Source: Acidobacteriota bacterium (GTDB lineage: Bacteria; Acidobacteriota; UBA6911; RPQK01; JAJDTT01). From it: a DNA stretch of 64,000 bases. A program made the position numbers and the translations under genes. Below, one piece after another: positions 1,459 through 12,850 of this stretch; the stretch's first letter is position 1, and each line of letters starts with the position of its first letter. Under the pieces are notes generated by a model. The model searched no databases. It was given only the letters and a program-made list of their open reading frames with translations, and had not been told where the DNA came from. The DNA is taken from NCBI GenBank assembly GCA_965203535.1, contig OZ241897.1:5963697-6027696 (forward strand), read 5' to 3'.

Positions 1459-1825
1459 TGTGGTGTCCCGCAAATACAAGTAGATGGACGCGCCAGTTTG
1501 TCGAGAACGAACCAATCCGTGGCGGTCGCCACGAGGCGCGCCTTCGTTGGATCACCCGCTGGGTAATCAGACCGAACCAGCGCTCCACTGGGTAGAGCGA
1601 TTGCCCTCCCGGTTCGTAGGGGCGACCCTTGTGGTCGCCCGCCCGGCGTCACCTGCCGAGATCATCCGGACGGCCCTTCAGGACCCCCGCACCACGTTCC
1701 CGTGGTTGGCTTGGTTCTGGTCGTGGTTCGGACCGAAGAGGGCACCCACAAGGGGTGCCCCTACGGGGTTCGAATCCGAGGCTGGACCCGTTCCGAATAC
1801 ATGAATTTGCGGGACAGGACACTAG
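1455..1825. mobile_element. MITE 2 (~370 bp) with terminal inverted repeats, carrying an inverted GTAG-REP pair
   Basis: Left end CTAGTGTGGTGTCCCGCAAAT; right end reverse-complements to CTAGTGTCCTGTCCCGCAAAT; shares CTAG 1455-1458 with MITE 1. Confidence 0.8.
1616..1764. repeat. Inverted pair of GTAG-type REP hairpins (REPIN-like)
   Basis: GTAGGGGCGACCCTTGTGGTCGCCC (1616-1640) and GGGCACCCACAAGGGGTGCCCCTAC (1740-1764); the latter recurs exactly at 49789-49813. Confidence 0.8.
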
Positions 1826-1831
1826 CTCTCC

Positions 1832-3205
1832 GTGCATCACACCGCGGTCATCAACGTCGTCGGACTTACCCCAGCCCTTCTGGGTCCGGACACGCCCAAC
1901 TTGAACGCCCTGGCCCGCAGCGGCGCCGTCCGGCCCCTGCGCACGGTGACTCCTGCCGTCACTTCCACGGTCCAGAGCACCTTCCTGACCGGACTGCCCC
2001 CCTCCGGCCACGGCATCGTGGGAAACGGATGGTATTTCCGCGACTTGGCCCAGGTCTGGTTCTGGCGCCAGTCCAACCACCTGGTTCACGGCGAGAAGGT
2101 CTGGGAGAGCGCCCGCCGGCGCGACGCGCGAGTCACCTGCGCCAAGCTCTTCTGGTGGCACAACATGTACAGCAGCGCCGACTGGAGCGTGACCCCGCGT
2201 CCCATGTACCCGGCCGACGGCAGGAAGATCCCGGCCATCTACTCCCACCCCGGCGACTTGGCCGAGCGGCTGGAGAACGACATTGGACCCTTCCCCTTCT
2301 TCGACTTCTGGGGTCCCCGCGCCGGCATCGCCTCCAGCCAATGGATCGCCCGGGCGGGGCGGCGGGTCTGGGAGTGGCACCAGCCGACCCTGACCCTCAT
2401 CTACCTGCCTCATTTGGACTACAACCTCCAGCGGCTGGGACCGGGTCATCCCGATGTCCACCAGGACGTCCGGGAGATCGACGCCGTCTGCGGCCGATTG
2501 CTGGACCACTTCCGGGAACGGGACACCCGGGTCATCGTGCTCTCCGAGTATGGGATCACTCCGGTGGACGGCGCCATCCACATCAACCGGGTGCTTCGCC
2601 AGGCCGGATGGATTCGCGTCCGTCCGGAGCTGGGGCTGGAGATCCTGGATCCGGGCGCGAGCCCTGCTTTCGCGGTCTCGGATCACCAGATCGCCCACGT
2701 CCATGTCCAGGACCCGTCCCACCGGTCCCAGGTCCGGACGCTGCTGGAGAGCACTCCGGGCATCGAGCAGGTCCTGGACCGCCGGGATCAGCGGGAGCTG
2801 GGACTCGATCACCCGCGTTCGGGCGACCTGGTGGCCGTCAGCCAGGCCGACAAGTGGTTCTCCTACTACTACTGGCTGGACGATTCGGTGGCCCCCGATT
2901 TCGCCAGGACCGTGGACATCCATCGCAAGCCGGGCTACGATCCCGCGGAACTCTTCGTCGATCCGGAGATCCGGCTTCCCTTCCTGAGGGTCGGACGGAG
3001 GCTGTTGCAGAAGGCTCTGGGATTCCGGTATCTCATGGACGTCATCCCCCTGGACGCAAATCTGGTCAAGGGCTCCCACGGCAGACCCACGGAAGACCCG
3101 AACCAGGGACCGGTCTTCCTGAGCACGGAACCCGGCCTTGTGCCCGACGGCGAGATTCCGGCGGAGGGAGTCCGCGATCTGATCCTGGATCATCTCTTTG
3201 ACTGA
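1832..3205 (+). CDS. eboF: Alkaline phosphatase / nucleotide pyrophosphatase family protein (EboF)
   Basis: VINVVGLT, PAVTSTVQSTFLTG..PS.HGIVGNGWY, YLPHLDY, SEYG, VDIHRKPGYDP, VKGSHG. Confidence 0.85.
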   Translation: MHHTAVINVVGLTPALLGPDTPNLNALARSGAVRPLRTVTPAVTSTVQSTFLTGLPPSGHGIVGNGWYFRDLAQVWFWRQSNHLVHGEKVWESARRRDARVTCAKLFWWHNMYSSADWSVTPRPMYPADGRKIPAIYSHPGDLAERLENDIGPFPFFDFWGPRAGIASSQWIARAGRRVWEWHQPTLTLIYLPHLDYNLQRLGPGHPDVHQDVREIDAVCGRLLDHFRERDTRVIVLSEYGITPVDGAIHINRVLRQAGWIRVRPELGLEILDPGASPAFAVSDHQIAHVHVQDPSHRSQVRTLLESTPGIEQVLDRRDQRELGLDHPRSGDLVAVSQADKWFSYYYWLDDSVAPDFARTVDIHRKPGYDPAELFVDPEIRLPFLRVGRRLLQKALGFRYLMDVIPLDANLVKGSHGRPTEDPNQGPVFLSTEPGLVPDGEIPAEGVRDLILDHLFD

Positions 3206-6585: not shown

Positions 6586-8340
6586 ATGATTCGATACGTC
6601 CATACCTGTAGGAGATCGCCGCTGATTCCGTTCCTGGCAGTCTTGTTCTGCGGCGGCCTGACCGCCGGCGAGACGGGTGGGAACTCGGACCAGCAACTCG
6701 CCCGCTACAAGTTCCTGCTCATCGACGACGAGCCCCTGGTGGAACACCACAATCTGCACCGCAAGGTGAACCAGGCGGTCAAGCGCAAGGACCCGGTGCT
6801 GCGTCTCGACGCTCCGTGGGAGACCGACCGGGACATGCTCAACTACGTCTCGGTGATGTACGACCAGGAAGAAGGGATCTTCAAGATGTGGTACACGCTC
6901 ATGCGCTGGAAGGGAGAGACGACCGACGGGCCTCGGGGCGTCGCCTATGCCGTCAGCCGGGACGGCCTCACCTGGGAAAAACCGAAACTGGGCCTGGTGG
7001 ACGTCAACGGCTCGCGTGAGCACAACATGGTGATCAATTTCAAGCGGACTTTCGTATACAGCATCATCAAGGACCCCAGCGACATCCCCGCCCGCCGCTA
7101 CAAGATGATCTTCAACACCTTCGGAGAGGAGTCCCTCTGGGCCCGGCACCACTCGGCTCTGAACCTGGCCTATTCCCACGACGGACTGCGCTGGGAACGG
7201 CCCCGCCACGTCAACCCGGTGATCCGCGGCATCAGCGACGACAACTGCACCCTCTTTTACGACCCGGACCGCCGCAAGTACGTGCTGATGACCCGGCGGG
7301 TCCCCAACGCCCCGCGGGACATCTCACAGTACGAGAGCTACGACCTGGTGAACTGGGAGGACAAGGGCCGCGTCCTGGTGGCCGGCGACGACCTGGATCC
7401 GCCGGAGCTCTACAACATCTACGACATGCCGGTCTTCCGCTACGAGAACTTCTTTCTGGGCATCATCAACCCCTATTACGTCCATCCCTTCGCCCCCACC
7501 TACGGCGCTTACCACAAGCCGCCCGGCTACCCCCGGGGCAAGGTGGGCCAATTGGAGATCTCCCTGGCCTACAGCCGCGACGGGAGGACCTGGCGCCGGC
7601 CCGACGACCGCTCGCCGGTGGTCCCGGTGGGCAAGCCGGGCGCCCAGGACGGCGGCATGCTCTACCCTGCCGAGAACCCCCTGGTGCGGGACGGCGAGAC
7701 CTGGATCTACTTCACGGCCAGCCGCCTGAACCACACCTGGTGGGACTGGCTCTCCTACGACCTGTCACAGGGGACCCGGGACGTCGCGGCCCTGATGGTG
7801 GCCCGCATGCCCGAGGACCACTGGATCTCGATGGACGCCGGGGACGAAGAGGGGTGGTTGATGACCAAGCCGTGGGGTCCGGCCTACGAGATCCTGGTGA
7901 ACGCCGACGCCGAGGGCGGCTCCATCGAAGCGGAACTGGTCACGCCATACGGCGAAACGATCCCCGACTTCACCCGGGCGGATTCGGTCCCGCTGACCTC
8001 CAACGGCACCGCCCAGAAGCTGACCTGGAAGAGCGGCCGGTCTCCCTACGATCTGAGCGTGGAGCAATTCGGCGGCGTCTGCCTCAGGCTGTATCTCACC
8101 CGAGCCAAGCTCTACTCCTACACCTATACGCTCCCCGACCCGGACGGCAACCTGGCCCGCCGCCAGGCCAACGCCCGCTGGCTGGACGTGATCACTCACC
8201 GCTCCGATCACTGGGGCCTGGGCACCAACGAGCCGGCGAAAGGGGTTCCCCCGCATCCGCGGCACCAGTCCAACCCCGCCGGAGGGCAGAAGGACTTCGG
8301 GAAGCGCATGCAGGAGTCGATCCGGAAAGGCCAGCGCTGA
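6586..8340 (+). CDS. Secreted five-bladed beta-propeller glycoside-hydrolase-like protein
   Basis: Signal peptide; repeated S.DG..W boxes (SRDGLTWEKP, SHDGLRW, SYDLVNW, SRDGRTW); C-terminal domain shared with the paralogs at 15672, 31632 and 49977. Confidence 0.7.
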   Translation: MIRYVHTCRRSPLIPFLAVLFCGGLTAGETGGNSDQQLARYKFLLIDDEPLVEHHNLHRKVNQAVKRKDPVLRLDAPWETDRDMLNYVSVMYDQEEGIFKMWYTLMRWKGETTDGPRGVAYAVSRDGLTWEKPKLGLVDVNGSREHNMVINFKRTFVYSIIKDPSDIPARRYKMIFNTFGEESLWARHHSALNLAYSHDGLRWERPRHVNPVIRGISDDNCTLFYDPDRRKYVLMTRRVPNAPRDISQYESYDLVNWEDKGRVLVAGDDLDPPELYNIYDMPVFRYENFFLGIINPYYVHPFAPTYGAYHKPPGYPRGKVGQLEISLAYSRDGRTWRRPDDRSPVVPVGKPGAQDGGMLYPAENPLVRDGETWIYFTASRLNHTWWDWLSYDLSQGTRDVAALMVARMPEDHWISMDAGDEEGWLMTKPWGPAYEILVNADAEGGSIEAELVTPYGETIPDFTRADSVPLTSNGTAQKLTWKSGRSPYDLSVEQFGGVCLRLYLTRAKLYSYTYTLPDPDGNLARRQANARWLDVITHRSDHWGLGTNEPAKGVPPHPRHQSNPAGGQKDFGKRMQESIRKGQR

Positions 8341-8347
8341 GGGATCG
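7346..8347 (+). repeat. Copy 1 of a ~1 kb direct repeat (copy 2 at 10429-11430)
   Basis: Near-identical sequence at offset 3083. Confidence 0.95.
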
Positions 8348-8399
8348 GATTGGACTGAAGCCTTGGATTCTTGGGCACCCTGTGTATGTTAATTCCGCC

Positions 8400-8630
8400 T
8401 CAATCTGCCAACCCCCAGCGCTGCATGACTTCTTCCAGCGGCCCGGTCCGAGATTTTCCGGATCGAAGGGCGATCAGCCGTTGTTCAGCAAGGTAAAGAT
8501 CCTCAAGGTCGTCCAGGTGCTCCCGAATGGCCTCGTTCATGTAGAAGGTCTTGCTGCGCCCGCTGAGGTCAGCCAACCGTTGCAGGCGCCGAGACACTTT
8601 ATCCGGTAAGCGTAGAGAGACAAGCGCCAT
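8400..8630 (-). CDS. Ribbon-helix-helix RelB/CopG-like antitoxin (orphan)
   Basis: MALVSLRLPDKVSRRLQRLADLSGRSKTFYMNEAIREHLDDLEDLYLAEQRL; AGGAGG upstream; no toxin ORF follows. Confidence 0.75.
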   Translation of the reverse strand: MALVSLRLPDKVSRRLQRLADLSGRSKTFYMNEAIREHLDDLEDLYLAEQRLIALRSGKSRTGPLEEVMQRWGLAD

Positions 8631-8720
8631 GAGGATCCTCCTTTGCGTGCATTGGGTGATACAAGTATCCCGTAAAGTGCTCGATCCGTCGCGGCATCGA
8701 CTTGGGCAGGGGGTAAGCCG

Positions 8721-8826
8721 ATGAAAACCGACAACGAGAAGATCGAACGCGGCAGCGGAAACGTATTCGCTGACCTGGGACTCCCCGACGCCGGCACGCA
8801 TCTGTTCAAGGCCGAACTGGTACCGG
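8721..8826 (+). pseudogene. Truncated copy of the XRE/HigA-like HTH gene at 11610
   Basis: MKTDNEKIERGSGNVFADLGLPDAGTHLFKAELV, then homology stops at the AT-richer insert. Confidence 0.85.
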
Positions 8827-8852
8827 GTGCAGATCAGCGCGGACGAAGCTGG

Positions 8853-9422
8853 TTACTGCTGTGGTTGTGGTATGGGCTGTGCGGTCTGTGTGCCTTGAAT
8901 GCGACATTTGTTCATAGCCAAATAATAACTAACAAACGTCTTAACATACGCCATCGTATTGTCCATCACCGCGTCCACATCAGAAAAGCTCATCCCGAAA
9001 GTTTGCATACGCCATGTTATAGCTTGTACTGATCTATCAAGGCGCGGATCGTGCAATTTTCTTTCATATGCCACGTCAATAGCAAACACTTTGCGTTCTA
9101 AACTGATAACTAGATTCACCATAAGTAGCGACTCTTCAATATCCATGCCGCCAAGTGCGTTAGGCGTGTGTTGATTGATAGCCTCTACTGCATTCCGTGC
9201 CTCACGTCTTAGGCGGTTTCTGGTAGCCTGTGGGATCTGGTTGTCAGCATAGACAGGATATGTATCCATATCTATTACGCTCACACGCACCAGCATCGGC
9301 TTGCAATCGTTATCGAGATTCGGCCAAACCGCCTCGGTACTTCTATCTGGTAGAGGTTGGGGGATTTGACCATGAACAGGTGATACAAGCGGTAGCAGCA
9401 GTAATAGTGGCAACAGCTTCAA
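8853..9422 (-). CDS. Secreted hypothetical protein, paralog of 9569-10126 (candidate immunity protein)
   Basis: Signal peptide; EAVWPNLDNDCKPM...YERKLHDPRLDRS..A..W...TFG...NKC; lower GC than the flanks. Confidence 0.7.
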   Translation of the reverse strand: MKLLPLLLLLPLVSPVHGQIPQPLPDRSTEAVWPNLDNDCKPMLVRVSVIDMDTYPVYADNQIPQATRNRLRREARNAVEAINQHTPNALGGMDIEESLLMVNLVISLERKVFAIDVAYERKLHDPRLDRSVQAITWRMQTFGMSFSDVDAVMDNTMAYVKTFVSYYLAMNKCRIQGTQTAQPIPQPQQ

Positions 9423-9486
9423 AACTTCACGTCCTCTCTTCCTCGCATTCTCACGTCCTCGTGTCTTGTGAGTTACAGGTCACTGG

Positions 9487-9576
9487 TCACAAGAGCGTGA
9501 CGTGCCAGTGAGGCGGATTTTTCTCAAGATCCATCTTGAATCCAAGCTCCTCTTCCTTCGCCGCGTTGCTATTCAC
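9487..9576 (-). pseudogene. C-terminal fragment with HWH motif (M15/LAS-type Zn-peptidase-like tip)
   Basis: Manual translation VNSNAAKEEELGFKMDLEKNPPHWHVTLL*; parallels the fragment at 10156-10280. Confidence 0.45.
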
Positions 9577-10126
9577 CCTGCTTGTCCTTACACTTGTTCA
9601 CCGATTTGTAGTGACCTATGAACGTCGCGACGTGCACCAACGTCTCGTCTACTCCATCGTGCACGCTATTGAAATCTGTCCCAAAGGTCCGCTTGTGCCA
9701 CACTACCGCATCTATGGACCGGTCCAATACTGGATCGAACAGCGGTCGTTCGTATGAGACTTCGGAGAAAAATATCCTGCGTCCTGGACTAACATCCAGC
9801 GTCGCTCGGAATATTGCTTCCCCGCCGCTACTGCTACCTGCAGAGTAAAGACCGGCATTCACAAACATCTTCCGCGTTACAGATCGTAGACGATTCTCGA
9901 TCTGCTCAGACAGTCGAGGGTATATATCCAAGTCTGTGAACCATACGTCCAGTTTCATCGGCTTGCAGCCATTGTCCAGGTTAGGCCAGATCGCCTCAGA
10001 CCCCCTGGATGGTGAGGTTGGACCCTCCAGCCCGTCCTTTCTTGCCGGGACTGTCTGGACTGTTGGGACTGTCTGTGCATGTGCAAGAGCTGATGTTGAC
10101 ATTAACAATAGCAACGGCAACAGCAT
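9569..10126 (-). CDS. Secreted hypothetical protein, paralog of 8853-9422 (candidate immunity protein)
   Basis: AGGAGGA RBS; signal peptide; EAIWPNLDNGCKPM...YERPLFDPVLDRS..A..W...TFG...NKC. Confidence 0.75.
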   Translation of the reverse strand: MLLPLLLLMSTSALAHAQTVPTVQTVPARKDGLEGPTSPSRGSEAIWPNLDNGCKPMKLDVWFTDLDIYPRLSEQIENRLRSVTRKMFVNAGLYSAGSSSGGEAIFRATLDVSPGRRIFFSEVSYERPLFDPVLDRSIDAVVWHKRTFGTDFNSVHDGVDETLVHVATFIGHYKSVNKCKDKQGE

Positions 10127-10155
10127 CCTTATTCCTCCTCTCCTTATCTCTTTCC

Positions 10156-10280
10156 TTAACGCTTCGTAAGATGCCAGTGCTCTGGACCTCCGTGAAGAGG
10201 CACATCGTAACCGACATTGTTTGCGATGAGGCGATAGTAATCCATCTGGTCTGGATCCATGTACTTAGAGCGGAGACGAG
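10156..10280 (-). pseudogene. C-terminal fragment with HWH motif (M15/LAS-type Zn-peptidase-like tip)
   Basis: LRSKYMDPDQMDYYRLIANNVGYDVPLHGGPEHWHLTKR*; begins right after the hairpin at 10282-10310. Confidence 0.45.
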
Positions 10281-10281
10281 G

Positions 10282-10310
10282 AAGGGGCGGCGGGTAAACC
10301 GCCGCCCGTT
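10282..10310. terminator. GC-rich hairpin, possible intrinsic terminator
   Basis: GGGCGGCGG-GTAAA-CCGCCGCCC followed by GTTCTT. Confidence 0.4.
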
Positions 10311-10390
10311 CTTCGATCTCTGGAATGAGTGATTTCCTGCCGGGAACCACTCCCGGCAGAACCTATCCTACAGGACACAAAACCACAGGC

Positions 10391-10421
10391 GGAGAGAGAA
10401 GGTGACTGTCCCCTTCCTCCC
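10391..10421 (+). repeat. REP-like hairpin at the duplication breakpoint
   Basis: GGAGAGAGAAGGTGACTGTCCCCTTC(C/T)TCCC; also at 11512-11542 and degenerate at ~11990-12018. Confidence 0.7.
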
Positions 10422-10428
10422 GCGGGCG

Positions 10429-11423
10429 TGGTGAACTGGGAGGACAAGGGCCGCGTCCTGGTGGCCGGCGACGACCTGGATCCGCCGGAGCTCTACAACA
10501 TCTACGACATGCCGGTCTTCCGCTACGAGAACTTCTTCCTGGGGATCATCAACCCCTACTACGTCCATCCCTTCGCCCCCACCTACGGCGCGTACCACAA
10601 GCCGCCCGACTACCCCCGGGGCAAGGTGGGCCAATTGGAGATCTCCCTGGCCTACAGCCGCGACGGGAGGACCTGGCACCGGCCCGACGACCGCTCGCCG
10701 GTGGTCCCGGTGGGCAAGCCGGGCGCCCAGGACGGAGGCATGCTCTACCCGGCCGAGAACCCCCTGGTGCGGGACGGCGAGACCTGGATCTACTTCACGG
10801 CCAGCCGCCTGAACCACACCTGGTGGGACTGGCTCTCCTACGACCTGTCACAGGGGACCCGGGACGTGGCGGCCCTGATGGTGGCCCGCATGCCCGAGGA
10901 CCACTGGATCTCGATGGACGCCGGGGACGAAGAGGGGTGGTTGATGACCAAGCCGTGGGGTCCGGCCTACGAGATCCTGGTGAACGCCGACGCCGAGGGC
11001 GGCTCCATCGAAGCGGAACTGGTCACGCCATACGGCGAAACGATCCCCGACTTCACCCGGGCGGATTCGGTCCCGCTGACCTCCAACGGCACCGCCCAGA
11101 AGCTGACCTGGAAGAGCGGCCGGTCTCCCTACGATCTGAGCGTGGAGCAATTCGGCGGCGTCTGCCTCAGGCTGTATCTCACCCGAGCCAAGCTCTACTC
11201 CTACACCTATACGCTCCCCGACCCGGACGGCAACCTGGCCCGCCGCCAGGCCAACGCCCGCTGGCTGGACGTGATCACTCACCGCTCCGATCACTGGGGC
11301 CTGGGCACCAACGAGCCGGCGAAAGGGGTTCCCCCGCATCCACGCCACCAGTCCAACCCCGCCGGAGGGCAGAAAGACTTCGGGAAACAGATGCAGGATT
11401 CGATTCGCAAGGGTAAGCGCTGA
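10429..11423 (+). pseudogene. 5'-truncated duplicate of the beta-propeller gene 6586-8340
   Basis: In-frame copy from VNWEDKGRV to the stop codon; lacks the first ~250 codons and the signal peptide. Confidence 0.9.
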
Positions 11424-11609
11424 GGGATCGAGGTGAGGTGAAGCTGCAACCTCTTGGGCACTCTGGCGTTCGGGTGGAGCTTCCATAGAGAGTTCTGGAA
11501 GTCGCGGCGGCGGAGAGAGAAGGTGACTGTCCCCTTCTTCCCGGTCCCCTCGTCAAGAAACAGCTTGCGTTGATATGGCGGAACCACCATAATGAGACAT
11601 GGCTGCGCG

Positions 11610-12002
11610 ATGAAAACCGATAACGTGAAGATCGAACGCGGCAGCGGAAACGTATTCGCTGACCTGGGACTCCCCGACGCCGACACGCATCTGTTCAAGG
11701 CCGAGTTGGTCACCCGGATTGACAAGATCATTCGAGAGCGCGGCCTCAAGCAGGTCGACGCAGCGAAGCTGCTCGGCCTGTCTCAACCCGATGTGTCGCG
11801 CCTGTTACGGGGCAGCTTCCGAGAGTACTCCATGGAACGGCTTCTGCGCCTCCTGATGGCTCTGGGGCGCGATGTGAACATTGTGATTCGCGAGTCGCAC
11901 CCGGAGCGACCGGGCCGACTCAGCATTGGAGCATGGCCCGTGCCGCAAAGCAGGGTGCGGGTAGATAAAGTAGCTGTCCCTACTGCCGAAGAGAGAAGAT
12001 GA
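11610..12002 (+). CDS. XRE-family HTH regulator (HigA-like antitoxin, orphan)
   Basis: ERGSGNVFADLGL..A...KAEL...I..RGLKQ.DAA.LLG.SQPDVS.L.RG....SMERL. Confidence 0.85.
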   Translation: MKTDNVKIERGSGNVFADLGLPDADTHLFKAELVTRIDKIIRERGLKQVDAAKLLGLSQPDVSRLLRGSFREYSMERLLRLLMALGRDVNIVIRESHPERPGRLSIGAWPVPQSRVRVDKVAVPTAEERR

Positions 12003-12148
12003 CTGCCCTATTCTCCCGCACGAGTGCGTCTATTCGTATGCCGGCGCACCGTAGCCTTAACAAGAAGTGAAGGAGCCGCGGTTTCCAGCCGCCAACCTCC
12101 AGAGTAACGAGTCACCGAAGAAGAGCGAGCGATTGGAAATCGCTCCGC

Positions 12149-12850
12149 CTAAGGCGCCGCCAGGTGGAGCTCGAACTGGTCCATGGAGAGCTTGCCCGTG
12201 ACCTCTTCCGAGAAACCCACGAAGGAGAAACCGTAGCTGGCGCTGTTCTTGAGCAGATCGTTCAGGGAAGTCTTCGACGGGGCCCAACTGCGGTGCCAGA
12301 GCGATTCGTCATTGACCAGGACGAAGTGCTCGGGCGGACCCCACTTCCCGTGATGGATCTTGATGGGACGGCCCGTGTAGTGCCAGCGGGTCCCTCCGGA
12401 GTGGACCCAGAAGTAGCACTTGGCGCCTTTCAGGTCCAAATCGTCTCCACGAAGGTGAACCGACACGCGGGCGCCCCGCAGATCGATGGCTTCCTCCTGG
12501 CGAAATCCGGTGGGCCGGGGAGTCGTACTCGGCCCTTCCTCGAGGTCCTCGGCAATCCACCGGTGATAGAGGATCAGAGGCAGGATCGAATGGGGGTCCT
12601 CCGGGGTATCGATCCGCCACCGGGAGTCGTCCCCCCAGACGTAGCCGGAATTCCCCACCCCGCCGGTCTTTTCCCAACTGGTCAGGAAAAAGACGTTCTC
12701 GTTGCCGCTTCCGCCGGTGTAGTCGTAGATCTGCCAGCTCTCACGGCCGGCGTCGAAAGTGTTGATCCGCTCCGTGGTCGTCGGCATCGATTCCATCCCC
12801 CCACACCCGATGGAGATGAGCAGTAGAGCCGCCAGACATCCGAATTTCAT
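12149..12850 (-). CDS. Hypothetical lipoprotein
   Basis: GGAGGGAG RBS, MKFGCLAALLLISIGC lipobox; Trp-rich, predicted beta-rich. Confidence 0.7.
   Translation of the reverse strand: MKFGCLAALLLISIGCGGMESMPTTTERINTFDAGRESWQIYDYTGGSGNENVFFLTSWEKTGGVGNSGYVWGDDSRWRIDTPEDPHSILPLILYHRWIAEDLEEGPSTTPRPTGFRQEEAIDLRGARVSVHLRGDDLDLKGAKCYFWVHSGGTRWHYTGRPIKIHHGKWGPPEHFVLVNDESLWHRSWAPSKTSLNDLLKNSASYGFSFVGFSEEVTGKLSMDQFELHLAAP

Follow-up and report, generated by a model that had tools for sequence, protein, structure and literature searches.

A candidate orphan immunity array in an Acidobacteriota genome: intact genes for exported proteins behind remnants of a LAS-type peptidase gene

Results

Gene content of the low-GC unit

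The DNA stretch analyzed here (the window) comprises 64,000 nucleotides (nt) of an Acidobacteriota genome (assembly GCA_965203535.1, contig OZ241897.1), and we focused on a unit of low guanine plus cytosine (GC) content on its minus strand (8821-10393), in which two truncated gene ends, called here stubs A and B, alternate with two intact genes for exported proteins. The elements of this unit follow each other in the order 122-nt repeat, stub A, protein 1, stub B, protein 2. In 400-nt windows covering 8600-10399 the GC content was 0.465-0.537, and values of 0.585-0.703 were obtained for the flanks. The sequence 8825-10260 is unique within the closed single-contig 6.04-Mb genome that carries the window (G000). 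An initial annotation of this region had described four minus-strand parts, and all of them were recovered as open reading frames (ORFs).

Stub A (10156-10270, minus strand) consists of the last ~37 codons and the stop of a LAS peptidase gene and ends with GPEHWHLTKR. It is contained in an ORF of 64 aa (10156-10350), the terminus of which reads GGPEHWHLTKR. Stub B (9487-9570, minus strand) comprises the last ~25 codons and the stop of such a gene, ends with PPHWHVTLL and lies in an ORF of 29 aa (9487-9576, terminus NPPHWHVTLL). Protein 1 (9569-10126, minus strand, 185 aa) is preceded by AGGAGG 8 nt upstream of its ATG. Protein 2 (8853-9422, minus strand, 189 aa) starts with TTG. Both proteins are exported members of a family called here I-1 and carry two conserved cysteines. 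The 122-nt repeat (10271-10392, strand not assigned) forms the 5' boundary of the unit. It contains two strong hairpins (DNA fold of -42.7 kcal/mol, z -5.8), and three further copies with 88-91% identity are present in G000. An Rfam scan of 8000-12200 did not return any element, and a scan for sigma-70-type promoters gave 0 sites (1.5 expected). Three terminator-like sites were found, every one of them on the plus strand and intragenic.

The stubs are remnants of a LAS-type peptidase gene

When the two stubs are aligned from their stop codons, the residues G, L, P, H, W, H, and T are in register at equal distance from the stop. Both stubs align with the C-terminal 24-37 residues of three full-length proteins of 256-261 aa (P0018-P0020), and stub A shares 41% identical residues with the last 37 residues of P0018. 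Given these alignments, the shared motif is not a chance similarity. The initial annotation had placed stub A at 10280-10156. Here, we found that the first ~27 codons of the 64-aa ORF (10350-10271) belong to the 122-nt repeat and that the peptidase homology begins exactly at the end of this repeat. Because 10271-10392 is a dispersed repeat, the start of stub A was refined to 10270. The tails of the two stubs share 7/25 residues. Stub B resembles the 3' end of the first peptidase copy in G250, a genome of the same genus (78% identity over 77 nt, 17/25 tail residues). In the full-length homologs the zinc motif H-x-x-G-x-N-x-D sits just upstream of the aligned region, and both stubs lack it. Thus, the stubs start downstream of the zinc-ligand motif and cannot be active enzymes. 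Taken alone, they did not match any Pfam model, and a word-based search for longer proteins containing stub A was negative. Taken together, the stubs are C-terminal remnants of a real family of LAS-type zinc peptidoglycan peptidases, as the initial annotation had assumed.

We also considered whether the short ORFs ending on HWH might yield functional small peptides, or act as leader ORFs in the control of the genes behind them. The GTG of stub B overlaps the stop codon of protein 1, there are in-frame ATGs in both stubs, and the motif is conserved between them. This explanation is nevertheless very improbable. Each stub runs collinear with the final 24-37 residues of much longer proteins, the reading frame of stub A runs upstream into a dispersed DNA repeat, no Rfam element was detected, and the conserved residues are those of the catalytic HxH of the parent enzyme.

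The parent peptidase

When a profile built from the two stubs was searched in 50 genomes carrying relatives of protein 1 or 2, a single place was found. It is located in genome G446 (E 0.0013) and corresponds to the 259-aa ORF of P0018, which has the same tail as stub A. Among 5.8 billion proteins, only three other clusters are related to P0018. P0018 matched Pfam Peptidase_M74 (MepA, PF03411) with an E-value of 6.6e-6 and 26.3 bits (cut-off 25), and this match is partial, with residues 158-225 falling on profile positions 32-93 (62/240 positions). No other Pfam domain, and in particular no trafficking or delivery domain, was detected in P0018, and a PHROGs search did not give a match for the peptidase, for I-1 or for I-2, a second exported family introduced below. 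The zinc-ligand motif H-x(3,6)-D is present as H-x-x-G-x-N/D-x-D in P0018-P0021, in two further peptidase copies of G000 (copies 1 and 2) and in G250. The C-terminal HxH reads HWH in both stubs and in P0018-P0020, HYH in P0021, HFH in G250, and SWH in copy 2 of G000.

A structural model of the peptidase was calculated with AlphaFold from seven sequences, and its mean predicted local distance difference test (pLDDT) score was 58, with C-terminal blocks at 74-94. The best VIA-align matches were those with hedgehog-N (Z 9.5 and 9.3; best root mean square deviation (rmsd) 3.4, 112 aligned residues) and with MepA (Z 7.8; rmsd 3.0, 116 aligned residues). VanX (Z 7.5), the VanY-like LdcB (Z 7.2), VanXYg (Z 7.1), and Ply500 (Z 6.9) followed, and Foldseek also matched the MepA structures 1tzp and 1u10. 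The matches with hedgehog-N, MepA, VanX, VanY-type enzymes, and Ply500 fall on the C-terminal half of the model, and for the N-terminal half we obtained matches with PapD/MSP-like Ig sandwiches. Residues 1-48 have pLDDT values <50, which is not proof of disorder, and are followed by the beta sandwich and then by the LAS domain. P0018-P0020 begin with MSE or MAE and lack a hydrophobic leader, and the peptidase alignment shows a short conserved stretch of acidic/hydrophobic character around residue 10-20. According to these models, the P0018-type parent is a stand-alone protein of ~260 aa with an Ig-like middle domain and a C-terminal LAS fold. The proposal that the HWH tips represent the HxH end of a LAS-type zinc peptidase is thus supported by the Pfam hit and by the fold (Z 6.9-9.5), and the family is predicted to cleave peptidoglycan peptides in a zinc-dependent manner.

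Peptidase copies and their downstream genes

G000 was searched for additional peptidase copies with a six-frame hidden Markov model (HMM) search. This search missed the stubs of the window itself, so that other short remnants may have escaped it. Copy 1 (5656420-5657223) is of full length and is interrupted by one in-frame TAG. The gene located 21 nt behind it is intact and encodes an exported-looking protein of 181 aa, which belongs to I-2, and beyond this gene there is an ORF that we read by eye, with no family search, as a phage-P4-type integrase. Copy 2 (4567076-4567513) retains only the C-terminal half, its HWH is changed to SWH, and a truncated I-2 gene follows. In sum, G000 carries four decayed peptidase sequences (copy 1, copy 2, stubs A and B) and zero intact ones, and the exported genes downstream of these four remnants are intact in 3/4 cases.

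In G446, the P0018 gene is separated by a 14-nt gap from an I-2 gene, and restriction-modification (RM) systems and IS1595 are found in its surroundings. A Pfam scan of the 10 neighboring ORFs did not recognize any prophage genes. G250 contains two peptidase remnants, each with I-2 downstream. Thus, in G446, copy 1 of G000, and G250, a gene for an exported protein with the same Leu-rich leader begins 14-35 nt past the peptidase stop. With RM systems and IS1595, the integrase-like ORF, low GC content, and differing flanks, the surroundings represent a mobile or defense-island context.

In our sample of 401 genomes of the phylum, LAS-domain relatives were detected in 30, a tally that includes G000 and one unpublished genome (G049). 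Inspection by eye indicated an exported-looking ORF starting ≤70 nt downstream at 18/25 LAS-peptidase loci of the phylum, a set that leaves out L106 (G000), L121 (G049), and L126, L128, L130, L134, and L135 (short matches). In other families of the phylum (L110-L124, L129), LAS peptidases with signal peptides are accompanied within ~30 nt by a third exported family. Its members consist of 230-460 aa, have a conserved Pro-rich mature start and gave, in two cases, weak sub-cut-off matches with Big_1. This arrangement may be another peptidase/partner pair.

Proteins 1 and 2 belong to an undescribed exported family

Proteins 1 and 2 are diverged paralogs (57/150 identical residues, 38%, E 3e-39), and the cysteine pair noticed in the initial annotation is conserved between them in the family alignment. 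Their hydrophobic Leu-rich leaders end with AHA|Q or VHG|Q and were read as signal peptides by eye. Position and export signal of the downstream gene fit a periplasm-facing immunity gene, and neutralization of the peptidase by its product is putative. The divergence of the stubs (7/25) is similar to that of the I-1 proteins (38%), which fits two old peptidase/I-1 pairs better than an in-place duplication followed by drift.

The AlphaFold 2 model of protein 1 has core pLDDT values of 78-93 and values <50 for residues 7-46. It shows a beta-alpha-beta-beta-beta-alpha two-layer sandwich that matched HpaA (Z 9.2), CsgG, PelC, TolB-N, PqiC, and LptE. Judged from this model, the I-1 fold is a common periplasmic arrangement that does not indicate a specific function. 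A Cys-Lys-Pro stretch had brought up the idea of an Ivy-like lysozyme inhibitor, and this candidate, which had no Pfam match and was not among the best 50 fold matches, was dropped. In two of the other sequencing runs described below, a length polymorphism was observed at window position 10047, in a Thr/Val/Pro-rich linker after the protein 1 leader (X3, -18 nt; X4, +9 nt).

I-1 did not match NCBIfam, and its best Pfam score was 14 bits (cut-offs 25.8 and 35). No Pfam model was found for I-1 at E ≤ 1 or for I-2 at E ≤ 0.01, and this includes the Cmi/YebF-type model. I-2 did not match NCBIfam either, and a protein Atlas returned only unnamed clusters. I-1 is therefore an undescribed family with no curated model in Pfam, NCBIfam or PHROGs, in line with the initial annotation, which had not recognized it.

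A HMMER scan of 1.84 billion representative sequences gave 16 matches at E ≤ 0.001, two of which turned out on inspection to be tandem-repeat artefacts. In a motif-seeded scan of species-representative genomes, 61 I-1 loci were confirmed among 85 pattern matches. All of these loci (61/61) are located in metagenome-assembled genomes (MAGs), and they carry 23 taxon labels. By title, Vicinamibacterales (12), Longimicrobiales (6), Pseudomonadales (5), Bryobacterales (4), and Candidatus Poriferihabitaceae (4, Gammaproteobacteria) were counted. Poribacteria, Porisulfidus, Tectimicrobiota, Nitrospirales, Trueperaceae, Dehalococcoidia, Latescibacterota, and others are also represented, and the MAG labels include Acidobacteriota, Gemmatimonadota, and Gamma- and Alphaproteobacteria. 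Several of these names denote lineages that we take to be sponge-associated. Within the phylum, the I-1 profile detected 3/401 genomes (G000 and two weak matches) and 0/4 genomes of the same genus. The close I-1 subfamily was not found in 50 I-1-carrying genomes, 9/50 of which gave distant matches only (seven further genomes were left out), and a scan of metagenome contigs with the close I-1 alignment yielded 41 pattern matches, 0 of which were confirmed.

Clustering of the 2521 ORFs around the 61 loci did not reveal a conserved partner, and the recurrent neighbors resemble, by eye, integrases, transposases, and a relaxase. Recurrent upstream stubs were not seen among these loci, except between near-identical genomes. 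At 6/61 loci, one frame or another shows HWH ≤8 codons from a stop; the remainder of the motif was present in 0/6, and we judged these occurrences to be due to chance. Two loci of G446 that are 4 Mb apart (L061, L062) contain identical 17-residue C-terminal I-1 fragments. Since the surrounding 120-codon open frames are also identical, these fragments lie on a repeated element of that genome. In the phylum sample, a single distant I-1 homolog was detected (L012 of G349, 1486-2743, minus strand). It shares an 11-nt overlap with the end of another gene, the 231-aa product of which has an N-terminal membrane helix and the pattern Cys-x2-Cys ... Cys-x2-His, and an ORF resembling, by eye, an IS3-type transposase adjoins the two genes.

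Exchange of exported genes behind the peptidase tail

I-2 is unrelated to proteins 1 and 2 (hhalign probability 0.3%). The leaders of protein 2 and of I-2 in G250 share 96% identity over the first 23 nt, and the similarity stops thereafter. Comparison of the G250 peptidase/I-2 junction with the stub B/protein 2 junction, where similarity ends after the leader, shows that the mature domain was swapped behind a shared tail and leader. When the G250 LAS domain and mature protein 2 were co-folded, the score was 0.00 (mark 0.32), which is evidence neither way.

Flanking genes, repeats and mobility of the unit

The unit is inserted between two copies of a duplicated flank. The left copy (7346-8824, plus strand) comprises the 3' 1 kb of a glycoside-hydrolase-like gene, an RHH gene (8400-8630, minus strand, Pfam TraY/RHH_1), and the first 35 codons of a HigA-like gene (8721-8824, plus strand, Pfam HTH_37). 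The right copy (10429-12002, plus strand) consists of the 5'-truncated hydrolase gene, a spacer, and the complete HigA-like gene (11592-12002, plus strand). The hydrolase-like gene (6586-8340, plus strand, 584 aa) is entire only on the left, where higA is truncated, and the right side shows the reverse. The 3' part of the hydrolase gene is 97.9% identical between the copies (7346-8347 and 10429-11430), and the 5' part of the HigA-like gene is 94.4% identical (8719-8824 and 11608-11714). This pattern would be expected if a circular DNA that came from a related strain and carried the segment and the unit had integrated by a single crossover. The hydrolase product gave sub-threshold matches only (Glyco_hydro_32N/43 and beta-1,2-mannobiose phosphorylase) and probably represents a divergent glycoside hydrolase or phosphorylase of the five-bladed-propeller type.

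The 3' part of the hydrolase gene is single-copy in 8/8 genomes of the same genus and is duplicated only in G000. In four same-genus genomes with a downstream higA match, the hydrolase-higA interval ranges from ~1.7 to 6.4 kb. A 35-nt hairpin repeat lies at the junction with the duplicated flank (10388-10422, second copy 11509-11543, strand not assigned). It occurs in many short copies in all nine genomes of the genus and marks junctions of the variable hydrolase-higA interval. In one same-genus genome (G159:C1:233400-236200), three tandem units of ~697 nt are located next to the hydrolase gene, and each of them contains the 35-nt repeat together with the initial 163 nt of the higA-like gene.

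The unit was also present at ~95-99% identity in contigs of four other sequencing runs (X3-X6), which originate from at least three studies, one run being labeled as coral metagenome. The homology to the window ends at 8821 in X4, X5, and X6 and at 10393 in X3 and X5, beyond which these contigs have sequence that differs from the window, and X3 has the same left junction as the window. Runs X7-X22, labeled as sponge, coral or marine metagenomes, had only small word shares with the unit and do not count here as evidence on habitat, and no RNA run was listed for the unit. The unit is mobile. An assembly artefact is an unlikely cause of the flank duplication, considering the closed single contig, the 2-6% difference between the copies, and the junction shared with X3. 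An integron cassette was rejected, as the ~30 nt from the protein 2 stop to the junction leave no room for attC; an integron integrase was not searched for. We interpret the unit as an array acquired by horizontal transfer, with two orphan modules that each consist of a stub and an intact exported gene.

Discussion

A toxin peptidase and periplasmic protectors

How can two intact exported genes behind two dead peptidase ends be explained? We favor the reading, with about equal weight for and against it, that the unit consists of orphan modules, each combining a dead LAS endopeptidase stub with a Sec-exported I-1 protector, and that the parent peptidase was colicin-M/pesticin-like. According to this scenario, the parent peptidase would be an antibacterial toxin acting in the periplasm of its target. 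The exported protein encoded downstream (I-1 here, the unrelated I-2 elsewhere) would bind or block the peptidase in the periplasm and so shield the carrier's own cell wall, and G000 would have kept the protectors while all four peptidase copies decayed. We infer the immunity function only from the gene position and the decay pattern; among the functions considered for I-1 it is the best supported one, and we are evenly divided as to whether it is correct. Toxicity of the peptidase, its export route, and protection by I-1 should all be taken as putative. The initial annotation had spoken of orphan toxin tips with intact exported genes in an Rhs/T6SS frame. Its first half holds, since the stubs are orphan 3' remnants, but a link with Rhs, VgrG or a type VI secretion system (T6SS) has no support. 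As the full-length protein is stand-alone and lacks a signal peptide and a trafficking domain, and no T6SS sheath gene was found in G000 or G446, the parent would resemble a bacteriocin of the colicin-M/pesticin type more than an injected effector.

Several findings weigh against this scenario. A full-length peptidase gene followed by an I-1 gene was found nowhere, and the gene downstream of full-length or longer peptidase copies is I-2 and not I-1. None of the 61 wider I-1 loci has a tip motif, a peptidase match or a recurrent upstream stub beside the gene, although the HMM search, which did not list even the stubs of the window, may have missed short remnants. The initial annotation had expected the homologs to lie downstream of HxH-peptidase or toxin genes, and for the wider I-1 family this expectation failed, as its members were never found downstream of a peptidase; the closest relatives were not covered by that survey. 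A TssC/VipB (PF05943) sheath gene was present in 0/2 genomes (G000, G446; the E. coli control was positive, and other systems were not searched), and no delivery system, lysis gene or evidence of receptor binding was found. In protein 1, 4 of the 8 listed nucleotide differences between samples are non-synonymous, a subset that is weak evidence either way. Many relatives of the peptidase in the phylum bear signal peptides and could be housekeeping enzymes.

The last observation leads to the idea that the peptidase is a wall-remodeling or lysis enzyme of its own cell (autolysin/endolysin-like) and that the exported proteins are its regulators or partners. LAS enzymes do include the housekeeping MepA, VanY-type carboxypeptidases, and phage endolysins, and in addition to their signal peptides, many of the phylum relatives have a conserved exported gene downstream, with the two weak Big_1 matches mentioned above. 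However, we consider this explanation quite improbable. Members of the family are scarce and unevenly distributed (4 clusters among 5.8 billion proteins, 30/401 phylum genomes), P0018-type proteins lack a signal peptide, neither the peptidase nor I-1 nor I-2 matched PHROGs, and no prophage genes were recognized by Pfam among the 10 ORFs next to P0018 in G446. Moreover, all four copies of G000 are broken, and hence the gene is dispensable there.

Among the rivals, the one that weighs most assumes that I-1 and I-2 are interchangeable exported cargo with an envelope or host-interaction role, which is moved by recombination in the peptidase tail and leader and leaves the stubs as scars. Both families occur mostly as stand-alone genes: I-1 at the 61 loci and I-2, which was detected in 17/401 phylum genomes at 20 places, in 17/20 cases, only 3/20 lying beside peptidase sequence. 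Mature domains were exchanged behind a shared leader, which would be odd for strictly cognate pairs, and each of the tail lineages (HVTLL and HLTK) occurs with both I-1 and I-2. These findings also count against a toxin with its dedicated protector. Furthermore, I-1 is spread over MAGs of many phyla with titles pointing to sponge-associated lineages, so that a host-related role would fit, and its fold resembles generic periplasmic lipoprotein-like sandwiches (HpaA, PelC, LptE, TolB-N). Exchangeable cargo, however, leaves unexplained why the peptidase gene recurs as upstream partner, why unrelated exported families occupy one slot 14-64 nt from the peptidase stop, and why the peptidases decayed next to intact downstream genes, and the co-divergence of the stubs and the I-1 paralogs argues for a long linkage. 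We therefore regard it as somewhat unlikely.

Returning to the protector hypothesis, one may combine its parts into a broader proposal. I-1 would then be a new family of periplasmic LAS inhibitors that has spread as stand-alone acquired defense in one habitat, and its target would be either a new secretion-independent colicin-like bacteriocin with a killing domain of the MepA/hedgehog fold or a wall-lytic enzyme of an animal host. This combination is unlikely to be right in all its parts. To our knowledge, interbacterial weapons of Acidobacteriota have barely been charted. If toxin and protector were confirmed, there would be a class of LAS-peptidase bacteriocins with at least two unrelated families of periplasmic protectors in this phylum, and the stockpiling of orphan immunity genes, known from T6SS, Rhs, and contact-dependent inhibition (CDI) systems, would extend to a stand-alone toxin with no recognized secretion system. 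An exported family found under 23 taxon labels would obtain a named, testable function, and a role in community competition or host tolerance could be tested. Even if the immunity idea fails, the loci document a clean modular gene exchange, in which peptidase tail and leader are conserved and mature domains are swapped.

Comparison with known systems

An orphan toxin tip followed by a downstream gene is a feature of polymorphic toxin loci, and we found it twice in the window, at copy 2 of G000, and at the second copy of G250. In the T6SS clusters of Vibrio cholerae, the 3' ends of effector genes are retained before orphan immunity genes, as described in PMC5361080. The orphan immunity arrays of this species, and the Rhs/CDI modules cited in the same paper, resemble the unit in that they are horizontally acquired and heterogeneous and consist of tandem intact genes behind shifted effector 3' ends. 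The stub-plus-gene repeats match the effector-displacement model for such arrays. In contrast to the V. cholerae arrays, no T6SS sheath gene was found here (PF05943, G000 and G446), and the unit is not attached to the 3' end of an effector locus that is still live; it is located alone between the hydrolase and HigA-like genes. Moreover, the toxin would here be a stand-alone protein of 259 aa.

Acquired interbacterial defense (AID) clusters protect against T6SS toxins and are associated with a recombinase. In our unit there is no recombinase, and protection is putative. Like the arrays discussed here, AID clusters of gut Bacteroidales are mobile orphan immunity arrays in bacteria that lack the toxin (bioRxiv 10.1101/471110). 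The way in which I-1 has spread across phyla within one habitat may be analogous.

With MepA (Peptidase_M74) and other members of the LAS superfamily (1tzp, 1u10; VanX 1r44; LdcB 4jid), the full-length homologs have the HxxGxNxD and C-terminal HxH motifs in common. Unlike MepA, P0018 has an extra Ig-like N-terminal domain and lacks a signal peptide, and the window holds only the last 24-37 codons of such genes.

A further parallel is provided by the bacteriocins of the colicin M/pesticin type. According to PMC5821083 and PMC3390615, these toxins have ~260-270 aa, mostly lack a signal sequence and carry a C-terminal cell-wall enzyme, as is the case for P0018. In PMC5821083, one cell-wall bacteriocin domain is paired with several unrelated families of periplasmic immunity proteins; the immunity gene is adjacent, its product is exported or faces the periplasm, and the contexts are mobile. 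The loci described here likewise have mobile contexts and adjacent exported genes of unrelated families, which are putative immunity genes. In contrast to colicin M and pesticin, the killing domain would here be a LAS/M74-like peptidase and not a ColM phosphatase or a T4-lysozyme fold.

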